Source: a virus. Taken from it: a DNA stretch of 64,000 nucleotides. The stretch spans positions 1-64,000 of IMG/VR virus record IMGVR_UViG_3300050132_000248, one strand, 5' to 3'. The first letter of the stretch is position 1. Each line of letters opens with the position of its first letter. Below are positions 3,272 to 20,650 of the stretch, in pieces. A model generated the notes under the pieces. It was not told the DNA's origin, did no database searches, and saw only the letters and a program-made list of their open reading frames with translations. A program made the translations under genes and the position numbers.

Positions 3272-3519
3272 AATTTTGAATTTTCGGTTAATATTTTATT
3301 TAATTTAGTAATTAATTCTACTGAATAAGGTGACGTAAATTTATGAGCTCCTATGTATACAACAAATTCTACAGGTTCATCATCTTCTGTATCAATCCAA
3401 TAACCAAGTAAATCTTTTCTATTGAAATAGAAATTGGTATATGAATCAGGAGAATCCAATCCCGTATCTTGTAATTTAGTATTAGAAAGTGTTATTTTAA
3501 TAGTTTCCATAACTAACAA
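3268..3519 (-). CDS. hypothetical protein
   Basis: 83-aa ORF; resembles the 35023-35256 ORF (acidic, GYW/GWW..D..D..F motif). Confidence 0.6.
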   Translation of the reverse strand: MLVMETIKITLSNTKLQDTGLDSPDSYTNFYFNRKDLLGYWIDTEDDEPVEFVVYIGAHKFTSPYSVELITKLNKILTENSKL

Positions 3520-3962
3520 TCTTTACAATATAGTTCGAGAACAGCTTTTAATTGATTATTCCTTTCACTTGAAGATCCTTGAAACACATGTCTAGGATTT
3601 ACTCTATATAGTTGAGAATCAATTTTTACAATTATGTTCTCCTTAAGAAGATAAGTAAACGCACTATCAAAGGAACGAGGTTTACACCCTGTTTCCTTAG
3701 CTATGATAGTCTTTAATGATTTACTCATAGAAAATTCTTGCCCTTTACTATATCTCTCTAATAAAGAGGCAAAAAGTTTCATTCTGACATCACTACTACC
3801 TTTTAATATCAGTACCATAGAAGAATACATGAGATAAAATTCCTCTTTAGTATTTGCTAGATATGTTGACCTATTAACAATAATATCAACCACTTCACCT
3901 GTTCCACTATCTACAATAACATCTGTAGAAGTGTTTCCTGTTTTTAGAAACGAATTTTCCAT
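3513..3962 (-). CDS. RepL-like winged-HTH replication/maintenance protein
   Basis: V.VD.GTGEV N-terminus, HTH segment, YRVNPRHVF C-terminus typical of the RepL family; start revised to ATG 3962 because the track start lies inside a promoter. Confidence 0.65.
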   Translation of the reverse strand: MENSFLKTGNTSTDVIVDSGTGEVVDIIVNRSTYLANTKEEFYLMYSSMVLILKGSSDVRMKLFASLLERYSKGQEFSMSKSLKTIIAKETGCKPRSFDSAFTYLLKENIIVKIDSQLYRVNPRHVFQGSSSERNNQLKAVLELYCKDC

Positions 3963-5524: not shown

Positions 5525-5726
5525 TTAGTTTTTTAGTTATATTGTCTATGTGTTTATATGTTAAATACACATCTGCATCAGGATGTTCGATTACTATCTT
5601 CTTTCTGAATTCTTCCATTTCTTTATAATCATTGAAGATTATTTCTGCAACATCTTTGTGAGAAGTTTTACTTCCATTCACTACATCGTATTTTATTAGT
5701 TCCAACATACAATTACTGTTTAGCAA
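5499..5726 (-). CDS. hypothetical protein
   Basis: 75-aa ORF in operon. Confidence 0.55.
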   Translation of the reverse strand: MLNSNCMLELIKYDVVNGSKTSHKDVAEIIFNDYKEMEEFRKKIVIEHPDADVYLTYKHIDNITKKLIENGETKT

Positions 5727-6156
5727 TCATTTGACTTATTAAATACTTATTGAGAGTCATATCCTCGCATACTCTTATAAATTTATCAAGAGTGGAAGGA
5801 TTAGTTCCAAACAGAGTCTTTATTGTTTTTATTGAGTAGGGAACAGAGCCTTTGTTATTAAGTTTGAATAGAAGAGATATTCTGTTCTTCTTCATTCTTA
5901 CAACATAATACATTAGGAGAATTGACATTTGACGTGCTTCAACTATTTCCCTTTTTCGGGTTAGTTTATATACTGCTCCTTTTGATAGTCCATATTGAGT
6001 CTCTACAAGATCTGTAATTCTCTCAATCTGGGAAGTAGTATTATTTATTGGATCCATTTGCTGAATCTGTAATTTCATCCTATCTAAGCTCTTCTGTACA
6101 TTATCAATCTCTTGAAGGAGATCTAAAGGAGTGATAGGATGTATTCTTATACCCAT
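5713..6156 (-). CDS. protein with DnaA domain-IV-like (DnaA C-terminal HTH) region
   Basis: TRKREIVEARQMSILL resembles the DnaA_C R.R.IV.ARQIAMYL signature; ATG 6156 preferred over TTG 6186, which lies in a hairpin. Confidence 0.55.
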   Translation of the reverse strand: MGIRIHPITPLDLLQEIDNVQKSLDRMKLQIQQMDPINNTTSQIERITDLVETQYGLSKGAVYKLTRKREIVEARQMSILLMYYVVRMKKNRISLLFKLNNKGSVPYSIKTIKTLFGTNPSTLDKFIRVCEDMTLNKYLISQMIAKQ

Positions 6157-6171
6157 AATCTTAGTTTTAGG

Positions 6172-6202
6172 GACAAAGGGGAGCAAATATACTCCCTTTG
6201 TC
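6172..6202 (-). promoter_or_regulatory. hairpin whose 8-nt loop is a -7 promoter box
   Basis: GACAAAGGGAG-TATATTTG-CTCCCCTTTGTC on the minus strand (11-bp stem, 1 bulge). Confidence 0.5.
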
Positions 6203-6238
6203 TCACATTTCCTACATAAATATTGTTAATTTTTAAAA

Positions 6239-6640
6239 TTAGACTTCATCAATATTGTTATCAATATATTGAACAGCAGCAAGTATTGCATAGTGTTCAA
6301 CATCAGGTCTATTGAAGAAATCTTCTGGAGTTTCTTCCAAACATTTTCCTTTTGGACAGATATAATAATTGAATATCACCTTTCCTGTTATAGGCACCTG
6401 TTGTACTACAATACCAACATAAACCTGTAAACTGTCAAATATTTCAAACAAAGCTGCAGGATTCTTATCAATAATATTAGCTAACATCTCATCAGCAACT
6501 CCTCTTTCTTTCATTGTATTCCTGAACTCCTCAGGAACATCAGTTGACATTGGCAAACTCTCCAATAGTTTAGTTGTGAAATATTCCTTAATTATCTTAG
6601 CTACCTTTGGATAGGTATCTAATAGTTCTTTTCCTTTCAT
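6239..6640 (-). CDS. hypothetical protein
   Basis: 133-aa ORF with a strong GGAGGTGAT SD. Confidence 0.7.
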   Translation of the reverse strand: MKGKELLDTYPKVAKIIKEYFTTKLLESLPMSTDVPEEFRNTMKERGVADEMLANIIDKNPAALFEIFDSLQVYVGIVVQQVPITGKVIFNYYICPKGKCLEETPEDFFNRPDVEHYAILAAVQYIDNNIDEV

Positions 6641-7212
6641 GACATCACCTCCTCTTTTTTTAAATATTGTTTAAGTCTTTGTTCAGTTAGTGTTTCTCTA
6701 TCCTCTTGATATCCTTCATAAACTTCAGAATCTTCTGGAAGATCTGTTTGAAGAAGGTCTTCCCAGAATTTTCTAAGATCTGGAGTTTTCTTGAATATTC
6801 TCACCTGAAGAGAAATTTCATCTCTACGAAGTCCATCTATAATTATTTTTACTGTCTTGGGAAATAATGCTTGAAATTCAGGAGATGTTTTAGAATATTG
6901 GGAGTGTCTTATTTTATCAAAATCTCCCTTGAAATCAGGATTAAGTTTATAAACGATAACAACAAATCCATCTGAATGATCATAATCAGTGATTATATCC
7001 TTGGTTCTTTCATATTCACTATCAAGAAATTCTCGAAACCTATCTATGTTCTTTGGACGAAACAATAAGTAGCAAGAATCCTCATAATGTTCTTCACGAG
7101 CATCATCTTTAGCATATCCATTTAGAAATTCATTAGCTTTTAGTGCTTCTCTATCAATACCTAAACTTGGCACCATAAATATTGAGGTAATAGTCTTTGT
7201 TAGTTTTTCCAT
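6637..7212 (-). CDS. conserved hypothetical phage protein
   Basis: 191-aa ORF in the replication operon. Confidence 0.7.
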   Translation of the reverse strand: MEKLTKTITSIFMVPSLGIDREALKANEFLNGYAKDDAREEHYEDSCYLLFRPKNIDRFREFLDSEYERTKDIITDYDHSDGFVVIVYKLNPDFKGDFDKIRHSQYSKTSPEFQALFPKTVKIIIDGLRRDEISLQVRIFKKTPDLRKFWEDLLQTDLPEDSEVYEGYQEDRETLTEQRLKQYLKKEEVMS

Positions 7213-16328: not shown

Positions 16329-17384
16329 TTATTCCTCCTCTTCTAAATCACGTTTATATTTGAGTTGTGAAATTGTACATTCATCTGGTTCTACATCATC
16401 ACGAAATTCCTTTAGAACAGGTTGAAAAAGGCTACCACCTTTATAGGCATATAAGTATTTGATTTCCAGCACCTGACCAATTTTCGGCATTTCCTGATTT
16501 GGATATACAGTTACACTTCCTACATTTACTCTAACAGGACCATCATAAAGCCACATTTCTACTGATCTTTTTCCTTCTTTTCTTTGCTCTCCTGCAATTA
16601 CAGAACATGTAGCCCTGAATTTGAATTTCAAATGATCACCCCCACTATTAGGTCTACCAGCTTTATAAAGAGAATCTTTCCTCTTGAAGACAACACCTTC
16701 AGCATTCTTCTCTTTCATTTCCTTAAAGAGAGCAATTTTCTCTCGTTGAGTAGTAGCAGTCTTTGTAATCTTGATATTATCAGAGTTCATTCTTCCCATT
16801 AATACCTGAAGTATGAGATATCTATCTATATAGGGAGATTTTCCTGACTTAATAGAGAAATCTATAGCATCCCAACATTTAAAAACCTCCCCTACAAGTT
16901 CTCCACAGAAAGTTACATCATCAGCAATATTAATCTCAATATCATGAATGATCTTCTCTGGAATAGAAATCTGCAAACCTTTCTTATTTGAGGCAATGGC
17001 TTTACCATCTTTGAAAATAACTCCAATATTTCTCCCATCCTCTTTCTCCTGCATAAGCCAATCATCATTCAATATCAATTGATTAGCAATATCCTCATCA
17101 ATTTCATTAAGAAGTTGAGGTTTATAACCAACATAATTAGAATCTGTTGGAGTAGAATAAGCCACTCCTTCACTTCCTTCATTATAACCTTTTGCCTTTT
17201 TCTCGTTAATTAACTGATTGTAAACCTTTAAGGCTTTATCAGGGGTACAATTCTCACATTTCACTAAACTCGTGAGAGCATTTCCTCTCCTTCCATATTG
17301 AACAGTAACAGTTCCTTCTGATAAGGAAACATGATATTCCTTATCCGATCTGGAATCTTTGTAATATAAAGACGTTTTTTCCAT
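16329..17384 (-). CDS. ATP-dependent DNA ligase with N-terminal WGR-like domain
   Basis: N-terminal DKEYHV...VQYGRRG (WGR-like); QEKEDG (motif I), FCGELV, CWDAI, EGVVFK, LKFK, C-terminal OB fold. Confidence 0.85.
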   Translation of the reverse strand: MEKTSLYYKDSRSDKEYHVSLSEGTVTVQYGRRGNALTSLVKCENCTPDKALKVYNQLINEKKAKGYNEGSEGVAYSTPTDSNYVGYKPQLLNEIDEDIANQLILNDDWLMQEKEDGRNIGVIFKDGKAIASNKKGLQISIPEKIIHDIEINIADDVTFCGELVGEVFKCWDAIDFSIKSGKSPYIDRYLILQVLMGRMNSDNIKITKTATTQREKIALFKEMKEKNAEGVVFKRKDSLYKAGRPNSGGDHLKFKFRATCSVIAGEQRKEGKRSVEMWLYDGPVRVNVGSVTVYPNQEMPKIGQVLEIKYLYAYKGGSLFQPVLKEFRDDVEPDECTISQLKYKRDLEEEE

Positions 17385-17608
17385 TATATTTCCTCCTGTT
17401 TTGGTAATTCTGTTAAAGATTCATCTCCAAATTCCACTCTTCTTTCATTCAATTCTTCAAGGGAGTAATATTCTGTTTGTGTGAAATAATGAAATCCACA
17501 ATCAAAACATTCTCCACTAACAGCATCAAAGGGTTTATAATCACCACTACTTATTGTATTTTCACTTCCACAATTTGGGCAAGTGAAACTGTCTGACCAT
17601 CCACTCAT
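17384..17608 (-). CDS. hypothetical zinc-ribbon protein
   Basis: CPNC...CFDC. Confidence 0.6.
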   Translation of the reverse strand: MSGWSDSFTCPNCGSENTISSGDYKPFDAVSGECFDCGFHYFTQTEYYSLEELNERRVEFGDESLTELPKQEEI

Positions 17609-17639
17609 AATATTTTCCTTTCTTTTAAATAATCTTCAA

Positions 17640-17816
17640 TTAATTTCTTTTTGCATGAATAGTAGAAATCTCTGCTTCTGGAAATTTCTCTTTAAAGTAT
17701 ATTTTTGCAATATTAGTTGCATTCTCAGCACTATAGGAGGAATAATGATATTCTACAACATAATTACTTCTATTGAGTATATAAGTTATTTCTACTTTAA
17801 ATAAATAAGATTTCAT
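17640..17816 (-). CDS. hypothetical protein (58 aa, not in ORF track)
   Basis: MKSYLFKVEITYILNRSNYVVEYHYSSYSAENATNIAKIYFKEKFPEAEISTIHAKRN*; its ATG overlaps the TGA of the upstream ORF (ATGA). Confidence 0.55.
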   Translation of the reverse strand: MKSYLFKVEITYILNRSNYVVEYHYSSYSAENATNIAKIYFKEKFPEAEISTIHAKRN

Positions 17817-18661
17817 ATTAATAATCCTTTCTTTTTAAAATGTTCTTCAACTTCCTTCATATTTTTGAAATTTTTGAATTTTTCATATTTTCTTAATAAT
17901 TTTATACAATTATCGTCAGAATAGATATACTCACAGAATCTTAAAACTTCTGATATTCTTGTAATAAACATATACCAAGAATTACTTCTCTTATCTTTCT
18001 TATGATTTGCATTAATATTTAACTCTTTACTTAGAAAGATAGAGAGATCTTTTAAGAACCATTCACTACTTACAATATTTATCATTATTCTATTCTGGGA
18101 AGCATAAATACACTCATCTCCATCTATATATCCCCTAATAAAATGACTTAATTTATCTAAAGGAACCTGTTCCTCTGTAGGAAATTTTAAAATTTGGGAT
18201 TTATTGGCAGTTATACCCTTCCCTTCCAAATCATTTATTAACTTTTCAGAGTTTAGTTCTAAAGAGTAGTAAGCCTTTCCTATATACTTGGTATTTTTGA
18301 TAGGTTTTGATTTACCGTATGCTAATGGTTTTTTTGTCTCTACTTCTTTTCTTAAACTTTCGAGAATATAACTATCCTTTTCTGTTAGAGTTATCTTGCA
18401 GCTATTCTTTTTAGTGTTAATAGAACCATCAGCATATAGAAGTCCCAAGAAATAAGCCTTATTTGGAGTGTTAATATTTTCAAAATACCTGTCATTGAAT
18501 TTGTATCTAAATCTAGTTATCTCTACGTTATTACTTTTTAGATAAAAACCTACAGTAACTGCAGATATATGAAGTTCTTTGGCTATTTCTTTTGTATTTT
18601 TTCTAACTGTTACATAACTGTAGATCATGTAATCAATCATTTCTTGTGTTATTTTCGTCAT
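17813..18661 (-). mobile_element. free-standing LAGLIDADG homing endonuclease gene with N-terminal HTH
   Basis: KAYFLGLLYADGS and SHFIRGYIDGD motifs; own promoter; C-terminus is a copy of the primase C-terminus. Confidence 0.85.
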
Positions 18662-18682
18662 ATTACTTATATTTTATTTCTG

Positions 18683-18714
18683 CAAATATAAGTAATTCTA
18701 GTGATTGAAACAAG
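18683..18714 (-). promoter_or_regulatory. Bacteroidota-type promoter driving the endonuclease gene
   Basis: CTTG-N20-TATATTTG(C) on the minus strand, about 21 nt upstream of ATG 18661. Confidence 0.55.
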
Positions 18715-18722
18715 AAATTATA

Positions 18723-19745
18723 TTAAAATAATCCTTTTTTCTTGAAGTGCTCCTCTACCTCTTTCATGCTCTTAGCTCCCCAACTTGCAAAATCCTTACA
18801 ACATTCAGTTAATAATTGATCAGGAGGATTAATATGTTTCCATTTGAATGTATCTGTTATTATATAACTTGCTGATTTTCCAACAGGATCACTATCACCT
18901 CCATAAAAGACAAGAATAGAATTATTGTTTATATAGTCTACTGTCTCCTGAGAGAAAGCTGCTAATGATTCATTTTGCACATGACAGACATAAGAGTAGA
19001 TTTTTCTGCAAACAACCTGATCCTTAAGTGATTTAGCGATAAGAGTATTATGATTCTTATCCAAGTTCTCTAATCCTCCCGCTAAACTTAAGGGAACATT
19101 AGAAAGCCATTTGGTTTTCTTACTATTGTGAGGTCGATAAAGTTTCCAATATCTTCCCTGATAAAGATAACCAAACCTCAATTCAGTTTCCTTTAAAGGA
19201 AATCTCTTTCTATTGAGAAACAGTTTATCAATAGAATAGATGTGATTATCTCTCAGATCCTGTAGGTCTATATGATAAGAATTCCAATAGGATAGCTCTT
19301 CATTTGTAAACTTACGAGTAACAACTTGAATCATTACTGAATGTTTCTCTTTATCTTCCTCTGGCTGCTTATATTCAGAAACTATTCTCTTATATTCTCC
19401 TACATTTGAAACATCAGATATTCCCAAGCCAAACTCTTTATCAATTATTCTCAAAGCCTCATTATATGAGCATGCATGGAGTGCCTTTATAAAATCAAAT
19501 GCATCTCCCGAGAGAGAAAGACTAAAATCAATAAATGTTAGATGACCATTCTTATTACCGATAAGAAAGCTTGGATTCTGGTCTGGATGTAGGGGTGAGT
19601 TTGTAGCTTCATTAATCCTCCAATTTATATTTGGCATGAAATGTCTGAATATATCAAAAGGAGTGATCATTTTAAGAATATTCTCTGCTGTTAGTTCTAT
19701 TTTAACTTTTCCTTTTATCATTATTGTACCATTTAATGAATTCAA
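18723..19745 (-). CDS. DNA primase (DnaG-like; degenerate CHC2 region plus TOPRIM)
   Basis: SPL..DQNPSF N-terminus, KSLKD, QNES, GDSDPVG TOPRIM, KDF C-terminus; likely start 19721. Confidence 0.8.
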   Translation of the reverse strand: MNSLNGTIMIKGKVKIELTAENILKMITPFDIFRHFMPNINWRINEATNSPLHPDQNPSFLIGNKNGHLTFIDFSLSLSGDAFDFIKALHACSYNEALRIIDKEFGLGISDVSNVGEYKRIVSEYKQPEEDKEKHSVMIQVVTRKFTNEELSYWNSYHIDLQDLRDNHIYSIDKLFLNRKRFPLKETELRFGYLYQGRYWKLYRPHNSKKTKWLSNVPLSLAGGLENLDKNHNTLIAKSLKDQVVCRKIYSYVCHVQNESLAAFSQETVDYINNNSILVFYGGDSDPVGKSASYIITDTFKWKHINPPDQLLTECCKDFASWGAKSMKEVEEHFKKKGLF

Positions 19746-20154
19746 CTACTGCAACCCATGTAGCTTCGATCTTTGAGGATATTTTACTTGAGGAAGGATT
19801 AATAGTACATCTTATTTCTCCACCAAGACAATCTTTAATTGTACAATTCCAATTATCAATTATAACAGCATGACCATAAAAGTCTCTATATGAAACATTA
19901 GTATTCTCTATCTTTTCTACAACAGGCATTAACCAATTCCAATCTTTATGATAATTCAAACTTGTGGTATAACCAACTCCTTTTTCATTTATCCATCTCG
20001 ATGGTGCAAAATATTCACCATGAGAATCTGTTCCATGACTTGCTCTTGCAAATTTCATTCCTATGAATTTTGCAATTAGTTCATTTCCTTTCTTTGCATC
20101 TTTAGCTTTCATGTTCATACCATTTAATAAATTCAACCACTGTAAGCCATACAC
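19702..20154 (-). CDS. hypothetical protein, tandem paralog A
   Basis: N.LIAKF, YHKDWNWLMPVVEKIE, KIEATWVAVVEFIKWY; likely start near 20112. Confidence 0.65.
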   Translation of the reverse strand: MYGLQWLNLLNGMNMKAKDAKKGNELIAKFIGMKFARASHGTDSHGEYFAPSRWINEKGVGYTTSLNYHKDWNWLMPVVEKIENTNVSYRDFYGHAVIIDNWNCTIKDCLGGEIRCTINPSSSKISSKIEATWVAVVEFIKWYNNDKRKS

Positions 20155-20650
20155 ATTCTATTTTTGTAGAAGGTCTCCATGTTCCCATTTCATAATTTAC
20201 TTTACCTCCTTCAGTTATCATTTCTTTAGAATAAGGTTTAGAACTTTCAAATTTCAATAAAGGTTTATGATTATGAACAATAATACCACAATAGTTCTCA
20301 AATCCAATAACTACTCCAATAGAATGATTATTAATCTTTGTTTGTTCAATCTTCTCAATAACCCTAAGAAGCCAATCCCACGAAGAATGAAACTCTAATT
20401 GATCAAAAGAAAATTGATGATCATCTTTATCATCTTCATGAGGATTATAATTTGTCTTATCTGGAATATCAAATCCCTCTATACATTGATGATAGCCATA
20501 TTCATCTTCATAATGAGGAAAACCATTTTTATATTCCAGAAATTTAGCAATTAAAACATTCCCTTCTATTCTTTCTTTATTTGTCATATATATGGAGTTA
20601 TTAATGATATAAAAAAGAGGTCTACTATTTCTAATAGGCCTCTTTAACAA
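20102..20650 (-). CDS. hypothetical protein, tandem paralog B
   Basis: N.LIAKF, FHSSWDWLLRVIEKIE, KIECVWLTVVEFIKWY; likely start 20587 (track start crosses a terminator). Confidence 0.65.
   Translation of the reverse strand: MLKRPIRNSRPLFYIINNSIYMTNKERIEGNVLIAKFLEYKNGFPHYEDEYGYHQCIEGFDIPDKTNYNPHEDDKDDHQFSFDQLEFHSSWDWLLRVIEKIEQTKINNHSIGVVIGFENYCGIIVHNHKPLLKFESSKPYSKEMITEGGKVNYEMGTWRPSTKIECVWLTVVEFIKWYEHES
20611..20645 (-). terminator. intrinsic terminator
   Basis: AAAGAGGCCT...AGACCTCTTTTTT stem plus U-tract after the 20660 stop. Confidence 0.65.

Follow-up and report, generated by a model that had tools for sequence, protein, structure and literature searches.

The locus described here raises the question why a phage should carry the end of its DNA primase gene twice, once on the primase and once on the homing endonuclease gene that follows it. 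The locus lies in the virus record IMGVR_UViG_3300050132_000248 of IMG/VR, of which positions 1 to 64,000 were analysed (the window, 64,000 nucleotides). The primase and the nuclease are encoded on the minus strand, and their ends have a peptide of 13 residues in common, MKEVEEHFKKKGL. We conclude that the nuclease gene belongs to a free-standing LAGLIDADG cassette in the 3' end of the primase gene, which probably works by 3'-end-replacement homing. The locus consists of the following parts.

18723..19721, minus strand: DNA primase gene of the CHC2 zinc-ribbon type (Pfam, homologues, tblastn)
18723..18767, minus strand: replacement ('new') primase tail, MKEVEEHFKKKGLF and stop (wobble divergence, G+C content at third codon positions, codons of relatives)
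18662..18722, minus strand: spacer of 61 nucleotides with the predicted promoter of the cassette (motif conservation among cassettes)
17861..18661, minus strand: LAGLIDADG homing endonuclease proper (Pfam, AlphaFold2, Foldseek)
17813..17860, minus strand: relic ('old') primase tail, MKEVEEHFKKKGLLI and stop, fused in frame to the nuclease (codon match to the relatives at loci L006 and L099)

The primase gene likely starts with the ATG at 19721 (MIKGKVK, as in its relatives); the mechanically called open reading frame (ORF) begins at a TTG at 19745. The protein matched Pfam Zn_ribbon_DnaG at 6e-6, and a protein search (E<=1e-20) returned 641 homologues, mostly of 330-340 amino acids and beginning with MIKGK. 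Genes of crAss-like and Flavobacterium phages that are annotated as DNA primase were matched by tblastn.

The two copies of the primase end differ at the wobble positions

The primase ends at 18723-18767 (minus strand) with ATG AAA GAG GTA GAG GAG CAC TTC AAG AAA AAA GGA TTA TTT TAA. Its C-terminus reads ...GAKS-MKEVEEHFKKKGLF and is followed by a plain TAA stop without an ATGA overlap. The nuclease ORF (17813..18661, minus strand, 282 amino acids) ends at 17813-17860 with ATG AAG GAA GTT GAA GAA CAT TTT AAA AAG AAA GGA TTA TTA ATA TGA, and the C-terminus encoded there is ...KFKNFKN-MKEVEEHFKKKGLLI before the TGA stop. In codons 2-10 all nine consecutive codons differ between the two tails, each in the third base only. 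The two copies are identical in 30 of 39 nucleotides, and their longest exact common run is 11 nucleotides. A preliminary description of the window had given these tail sequences with their coordinates and the nine wobble-only differences, and re-reading of the DNA returned the same.

The extent of the difference was compared with several backgrounds. With independent draws from the codon usage of the window, all nine codons would differ with P=7e-4, for a run that was picked post hoc. A control was built from 61 distinct tails of nuclease-free primase homologues. In the resulting 764 natural pairs, 31% of the same-residue codons differed on average, and 0.4% of the pairs reached 75% (9/12). 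When tails of 24 codons were used, the mean difference was 38% and 1% of the pairs reached 75%. A weaker control is the gene-wide synonymous difference of 44% between the primase of the window and its closest relative, which gives P(>=9/12)=0.03.

The primase tail also stands out in its base composition, as had been noted from its G/C wobbles in an AT-biased genome. The G+C content at third codon positions (GC3) was 0.23 in the body of the gene but 0.50 in its tail. Tails of 81 nuclease-free primases were more AT-rich than the respective bodies (tail minus body, mean -0.14, standard deviation 0.10), whereas the value for the primase of the window was +0.27, the highest of all (z ~4). At the two places where the downstream copy uses AAG, the primase copy has AAA, so the latter is specifically unlike its downstream twin and not merely enriched in GC. 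The residues H325, F326, K329 and L331 of the primase tail are conserved in at least 90% of the primases.

The copy behind the nuclease is the native primase end

The AT-wobble copy behind the nuclease represents the native state. The closest primase relative, P0002 at locus L006 (82% amino acid identity), has no nuclease. Its primase ends in ...ARS-MKEVEEHFKKKGLII, with the 13-residue tail peptide identical to that of the window, and its stop lies inside the ATGA that starts the directly attached next gene. At the nine diagnostic codons this gene agrees with the nuclease-fused copy in 8/9 and with the primase copy in 1/9. The nuclease-free L099 (69% amino acid identity) agrees with the nuclease-fused copy in 6/9 and with the primase copy in 1/9. 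Since both relatives match the downstream copy, the resident primase end is that at 17813-17860, and the copy at 18723-18767 is derived. The preliminary description had named the tails of endonuclease-free relatives as the decisive comparison, and it came out in favour of the proposed insertion.

The stops point in the same direction. Of the distinct tails of nuclease-free primases, about 60% have I or L at each of the last two positions and their stop in an ATGA, whereas the primases upstream of a nuclease have plain stops. Because the ATGA-type ends follow the nuclease and the upstream primases end plainly, the native primase end now lies behind the nuclease in the occupied alleles. The relic tail of the window is of the native type in its AT-wobble codons and in its ATGA stop/start overlap at 17813-17816. 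Among four other peat or permafrost runs, contigs of three peat runs showed the occupied form only, in short pieces of low depth without a joint that spans the cassette, and run X2 yielded no such pieces; these data are uninformative on empty alleles.

Related cassettes occupy the primase genes of other phages

A search with the nuclease (E<=1e-5) yielded 173 homologues, the closest dozen of which were 43-61% identical. All close homologues with visible context were found 20-61 nucleotides after a primase homologue, and the association of the nuclease with the primase is family-wide. The cassettes besides that of the window are at the following loci.

L007, L008/9, L010, L011/12, L013/14, L038, L095, L096, L097: related cassettes
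P0133 contig: related cassette, context only

The relics were counted in the ten cassettes with DNA, which include the window and leave P0133 outside. A relic primase tail of 6-25 codons stands behind the nuclease in 8/10 of them. It is read in frame in the window (15 codons), in L007 (~14), in L008 (~6) and in L013 (~7), and the last three end with an ATGA overlap after ..EEVLKQKEII, ..KEKGII and ..KQKQLL, respectively. In L011 and L038 (~24 codons each) and in L095 and L096 (~22 each) the relic is out of frame and lies immediately beyond the conserved part of the nuclease, as in WADLAKEHGLEAVEQYLKEKQLL with its stop; here the nuclease frame enters the relic for a few codons and then stops. 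The relic ends at the start of the next gene, with an ATGA overlap in all but L038, where TAATG is found. No relic was visible in L010 and L097. The in-frame fusion in four cassettes, with a chance of ~1/81 if the cases were independent, was considered as evidence for selection and rejected, since homing copies the junction and the cases are perhaps dependent.

The comparison of L011 with L038 shows which parts travel together. The new tail and the spacer are 90-98% identical and the nuclease is 85-92% identical, whereas the primase body has ~70% nucleotide identity and the downstream region ~40%. Tail, promoter and nuclease move as one unit. The nuclease-free L041/L042 are 96% identical to L038 over the primase gene. 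In their tails, as in those of L045/L050, the sequence is like that of the L038 relic (AKVHGL..YLK..) and unlike that of the L038 new tail (SRKYGL..ILKEK..). Cassettes occupied 1/80 of the IMG/VR primase loci, and this sporadic distribution, together with the mobility seen between L011 and L038, is that of a homing endonuclease. In the preliminary description an insertion about 15 codons before the primase stop, a supplied tail, a relic of the resident tail and a promoter of its own had been proposed, and the ten related cassettes support all of these. Pooled over the family, new and old tails differed in 38/66 same-residue codons at a background of 31-38%, and in the other cassettes they also differed by 8-11 amino acids.

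The 3.9-kb region gave no match to GenBank phages in a search at the DNA level, and the scan of viral contigs with the nuclease found no close relatives. A second example was not present in the same genome (GIY-YIG, 0 matches). The sole other nuclease-type match in this genome was an HNH_3 domain in an open frame of 197 amino acids at G000:C1:113930-114004, outside the window.

The nuclease has the fold and motifs of a homing endonuclease

The nuclease matched Pfam PF14528 (LAGLIDADG_3) at 1.5e-12 in two stretches. It consists of an N-terminal helix-turn-helix (residues ~1-45, with a weak GerE-type Pfam match) and two LAGLIDADG domains. Both motifs are present with their catalytic acidic residues, LGLLYADGS (D78) and IRGYIDGDEC (D182), and D78, G79, D180, G181 and D182 were invariant among 30 homologues. 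An AlphaFold2 model built from 30 homologues reached a predicted local distance difference test score of 94 and a predicted template modelling score of 0.82. Its top matches in Foldseek, all with probability 1.00, were I-Tsp061I, the bI3 maturase and the I-LtrWI / I-OnuI families, and the model shows the pseudo-dimeric alpha-beta-beta-alpha-beta-beta-alpha fold. Three short N-terminal helices fit the helix-turn-helix, and there is no extra domain. A sequence-only search of the PDB with the nuclease returned nothing.

The last 15 residues of the nuclease are an add-on, since its homologues end 2-5 residues past KFKNY. In the model the fused primase peptide is predicted with fairly high confidence to prolong the last helix of the nuclease. 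The relic is coupled to one further ORF.

17640..17816, minus strand: ORF of 58 amino acids that starts in the ATGA overlap and is coupled to the relic tail (no homologue)

This ORF had no homologue in any of the loci compared and therefore does not belong to the conserved cassette.

The spacer carries a conserved promoter-like motif

In the spacer of the window, a -33-like CTTG at 18711-18714 and a -7 box, TATATTTG, at 18683-18690 form the predicted promoter of the nuclease gene. All nine of the aligned cassettes (9/9) have the corresponding motif, TTTG or CTTG followed after ~20 nucleotides by TTACTTATATTTG, which coincides exactly with the promoter that the preliminary description had placed at 18683-18714. 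In 8/9 aligned cassettes the ATG of the nuclease follows 4-5 nucleotides past a TTTG. The -33/-7 promoter consensus of Bacteroidota is TTTG..TAnnTTTG, and the spacer motif resembles it. The strict Bacteroides pattern TTTG-N18-21-TAnnTTTG occurred once in the window, where 2.8 matches were expected, and the 13-mer around the -7 box was not a recurrent motif of the phage. A scan for sigma-70 promoters did not detect the site. Since the motif is not enriched in the window and is missed by the sigma-70 scan, the promoter call rests on its conservation among the cassettes and its likeness to the consensus.

The spacer of the window can also fold.

18662..18696, minus strand: hairpin of 13 bp (RNA fold -10.8 kcal/mol, z -2.2; inverted copies)

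The 5' arm of the hairpin holds the -7 box, and its 3' arm stops one base short of the nuclease ATG. It is found only in the cassette of the window, where it comes with 21 extra nucleotides that are missing from the other cassettes. As judged from the positions of the arms, transcripts that read through from the primase would contain the whole hairpin, whereas transcripts initiated at the promoter would be without its 5' arm. Phage T4 limits the translation of some of its genes to late transcripts, and the arrangement of the hairpin is similar. A contig of run X5 matched only 18649-18679 (31 nucleotides, the nuclease start and one hairpin arm), with unrelated sequence on both sides; it may be the start of a related cassette in another phage, or an assembly end.

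Other nuclease genes near the primase

For unrelated nuclease genes, too, the 3' end of the primase is a hotspot. In L005 (a 59% relative) a GIY-YIG gene at 1857-2897 directly follows the primase, and its stop overlaps the next start. A remnant of this gene, 37 residues with 97% identity, was found in L025 at 3513-3623. Related GIY-YIG genes lie 0.6-1.5 kb downstream of the primase in L019, L049, L061 and L062. In L001 (5643-5954, 6264-7265 and 7281-7733; the same as L016) a GIY-YIG gene splits into two ORFs a gene of the DUF932 family that is whole in L004 (5571-6509).

L011/L012 contain a HATPase_c fragment of 123 amino acids (5589-5960) that is followed by a second LAGLIDADG gene (6008-6798). 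At the equivalent place L010 (6205 onward) and L096 (5632 onward) have one gene of ~760-780 amino acids, and the second LAGLIDADG gene may mark a further case of a nuclease inserted in an essential gene. Distant LAGLIDADG homologues (38-39%) are also present upstream of the primase, at a different insertion site, in L052 (1-573) and L062 (953-1693).

The primase gene seems from the sequences to have been exchanged as a block between lineages. In L026 the ligase is 75% and the gene upstream of the primase 87% identical to the window (16329-17384 and 20102-20650), and the primase between them is only 55% identical.

A model for 3'-end-replacement homing

As in the elements for which 3'-end replacement has been described, the nuclease gene lies directly 3' of an intact host gene without intron or intein, brings its own version of the 3' end, and has the former end downstream. 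The mobile unit would consist of the replacement primase tail with its stop, the promoter and the nuclease gene, and would be followed by the relic of the resident tail. By analogy with the WHO elements of yeasts described below, a nuclease-free primase allele that meets the carrier in a mixed infection would be cut by the nuclease across the junction of body and tail, ~15 codons before the stop. The break would then be repaired from the carrier, with the primase body as left homology and the relic tail plus the following sequence as right homology. The recipient would thereby gain the new tail, the promoter and the nuclease gene, and its primase would stay full length because the cassette tail encodes the same 13 residues.

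Two features would protect the carrier from its own nuclease. The new tail differs at every wobble over 27 bp, which is about the length of a LAGLIDADG site, and the relic would be spared as it is without the left part of the site. With at most 11 bp of unbroken identity between the repeats, recombination that deletes the cassette, or repair without copying it, would also be hindered. We infer that the recoding destroys the target site of the nuclease, and likewise the cut site, the immunity, the selection behind the recoding and a present activity of the enzyme.

A farther-reaching interpretation is possible but more doubtful. The 27 bp with toggled wobbles could be the footprint of the recognition site left by an arms race, in which an enzyme that tolerates single wobble changes forces the carrier to alter every synonymous position. 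The relic could then be a portable right homology arm of ~45 bp, which would admit the cassette into any primase of the family, whatever gene is downstream, and such natural recoded-rescue drives, a class not recognised so far, might be widespread in phages of the Bacteroidota type.

Several observations weigh against homing by 3'-end replacement or against its present operation in this phage. The closest nuclease-free relative is only 82% identical, and no empty-site allele of the same phage was found. The GC-wobble tail had no exact match in the viral contigs, and no donor was identified. The statistics of the window alone rest on 12 codons, and the excess over the gene-wide rate is modest. 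In the other cassettes, many amino-acid changes separate new from old tails, so a recoding that is synonymous throughout is a feature of the window and no rule of the family. The relics of L011 and L038 are only ~72% identical, and the relic could either travel as a homology arm or be left behind by each recipient. In the nuclease of the window alone, the near-invariant G183 next to the second catalytic Asp is replaced by E, so that DGDEC (18113-18127, residues 179-183) stands where 29 aligned homologues have DGDG. With the Glu at 183 the nuclease may have lost part or all of its activity, and the arrangement may be a fossil; DGDEC may also be a first step of decay or reflect a changed activity.

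The same architecture could have arisen with a neutral wobble pattern, if the tail came without selection from a diverged donor that encoded the same 13 residues. Divergence of this kind is natural, as L006 has the identical tail peptide and yet the 44% synonymous difference over the gene; 9/12 against this rate gives just P=0.03, and the tails of other cassettes are plainly foreign with their 8-11 amino-acid changes. What makes a neutral origin unlikely is the strong AT-wobble bias, with which unrelated tails agree in 62-69% of their same-residue codons and only 0.4-1% of the pairs reach 75%. In addition, a GC3 of 0.50 was unmatched in the 81 natural tails, and no natural tail was found with the codons of the new copy, in which both native AAG codons are AAA. 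Alternatively, the primase end might have been duplicated locally in tandem, for instance by slippage during replication, and an unrelated nuclease might have landed between the copies later, with no homing at all. This would fit the frequent occupation of this slot by free-standing nucleases, as by the GIY-YIG gene in L005 and its remnant in L025. Such an origin is extremely unlikely, as the layout recurs with ten related nucleases and relics of varied length, tail, promoter and nuclease have passed jointly between genomes with ~70% identity in the primase body, and the nuclease-free primases (~85 loci) show no duplicated tail.

Selection might also have acted on the relic itself, if the in-frame peptide let the nuclease dock onto the partners of the primase at the replication fork. 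The peptide probably contacts something, given the conservation of H325, F326, K329 and L331, and it prolongs the last helix in the model and is in frame in four cassettes. Against this, the relic is out of frame in four cassettes and not visible in L010 and L097, in-frame relics are as short as 6-7 residues, and a stop kept in the ATGA overlap for translational coupling of the next gene explains the fusion equally well and more simply. We consider docking very unlikely; recruitment of the nuclease to such partners through the shared tail, as suggested in the preliminary description, found no support, as four relics are out of frame and two cassettes have none visible. LAGLIDADG genes are commonly carried by introns or inteins, and the downstream copy would then be the true last exon or extein. 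This can practically be dismissed here, since only 61 nucleotides precede and 0 nucleotides follow the nuclease ORF, the primase ORF is complete with a conserved tail, and a conserved promoter stands ahead of the nuclease. A search of 16500-20500 against Rfam (E<=1) gave no match to a group I intron or other RNA family, and with flanks of 61 and 0 nucleotides a group I intron was rejected. An intein was rejected as the nuclease lies in another frame behind three stop codons and has no Hint domain in Pfam.

Relation to known homing systems

The preliminary description had referred to organellar genes as the precedent for such 3'-end replacement. Duplications in fungal mitochondria are a looser precedent than the WHO elements of yeasts, which have the same layout and likewise LAGLIDADG enzymes (PMC7282813). 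In Torulaspora and Lachancea, a LAGLIDADG gene of this type lies behind an intact essential gene to which it has supplied a resistant replacement 3' end, and the former 3' end is left downstream as a fragment that was proposed to serve as a second homology region (PMC7282813). One WHO enzyme has an asymmetric site of 28 bp (-7 to +21), in which synonymous changes are better tolerated than others (bioRxiv 10.64898/2026.08.13.744650). The mechanism of 3'-end replacement has been demonstrated for these yeast elements (Coughlan et al. 2020, PMC7282813; Osborne et al. 2026, bioRxiv 10.64898/2026.08.13.744650).

The phage cassette and the WHO elements are alike in that neither RNA nor protein splicing is needed, and the target region, which diversifies under conflict in the yeasts, probably does so in the phages as well. 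They differ in host and target, a phage and its primase here and the yeast nucleus and FBA1 there, and in the duplicated piece, which has 18-75 bp here and ~400 bp in WHO elements. The relic of the phage cassettes is often read in frame as the C-terminus of the nuclease, with an ATGA overlap. Clusters of successive elements were not seen here, and the new tail of the window is purely synonymous. The phage nuclease has an N-terminal helix-turn-helix and no intein-like (Hint) or GATA zinc-finger part, so the cassette would work like a WHO element but does not encode a WHO-family protein.

In fungal mitochondria, intact copies of atp6, cob and other genes can be followed by LAGLIDADG or GIY-YIG ORFs, on the far side of which a partial, C-terminal duplicate of the gene has been described (PMC6279837). 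These cases differ in being organellar and in their often degenerate and multiple ORFs. No promoter of their own and no compact in-frame fusion have been described for them, and their mechanism is mostly inferred.

The free-standing endonucleases of T4-like phages, such as SegF, SegG and MobE, are known for 'intronless homing'. They share with the cassette a nuclease gene that has expression signals of its own and neighbours an essential gene of replication, a sporadic distribution, co-conversion of the flanks and a position at an exchange boundary. They differ in lying between intact genes, in drawing their immunity from natural polymorphism of the neighbour, and in belonging to the GIY-YIG or HNH type, not to LAGLIDADG. 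To our knowledge, duplication or replacement of a gene end is not on record for these endonucleases.

Synthetic recoded-rescue homing drives target an essential gene and carry a recoded version of its 3' part. The phage cassette would resemble them if it cuts an essential gene near the 3' end and supplies a synonymous replacement that is immune to cleavage. It differs from these man-made, Cas9-based constructs as a natural, protein-guided element. In the phage literature we found no description of the layout, which does not prove that there is none.

Implications for phage genomes

Homing elements are commonly sorted into three types, carried in introns, carried in inteins or free-standing between genes. 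The replacement of a 3' end has been recognised as a category of its own only for yeasts (2020, 2026) and, with less clarity, for the mitochondria of fungi. The phage form is very compact. With 15-25 codons replaced, the cassette has its own predicted promoter, and the relic is reused as the C-terminus of the nuclease and as the coupling site of the next gene. At least ten related cassettes exist in peat, soil and other metagenomes.

The locus would provide a natural and testable case of synonymous recoding for immunity to a nuclease, as in the engineered recoded-rescue drives. For annotation, short primase-like C-termini on nuclease ORFs are best taken as relics and not as domains. The cassettes also account for one source of the mosaic boundaries and short duplicated gene ends in the replication modules of phages, and they suggest a route by which selfish nucleases can settle within essential phage genes without the help of an intron or intein.

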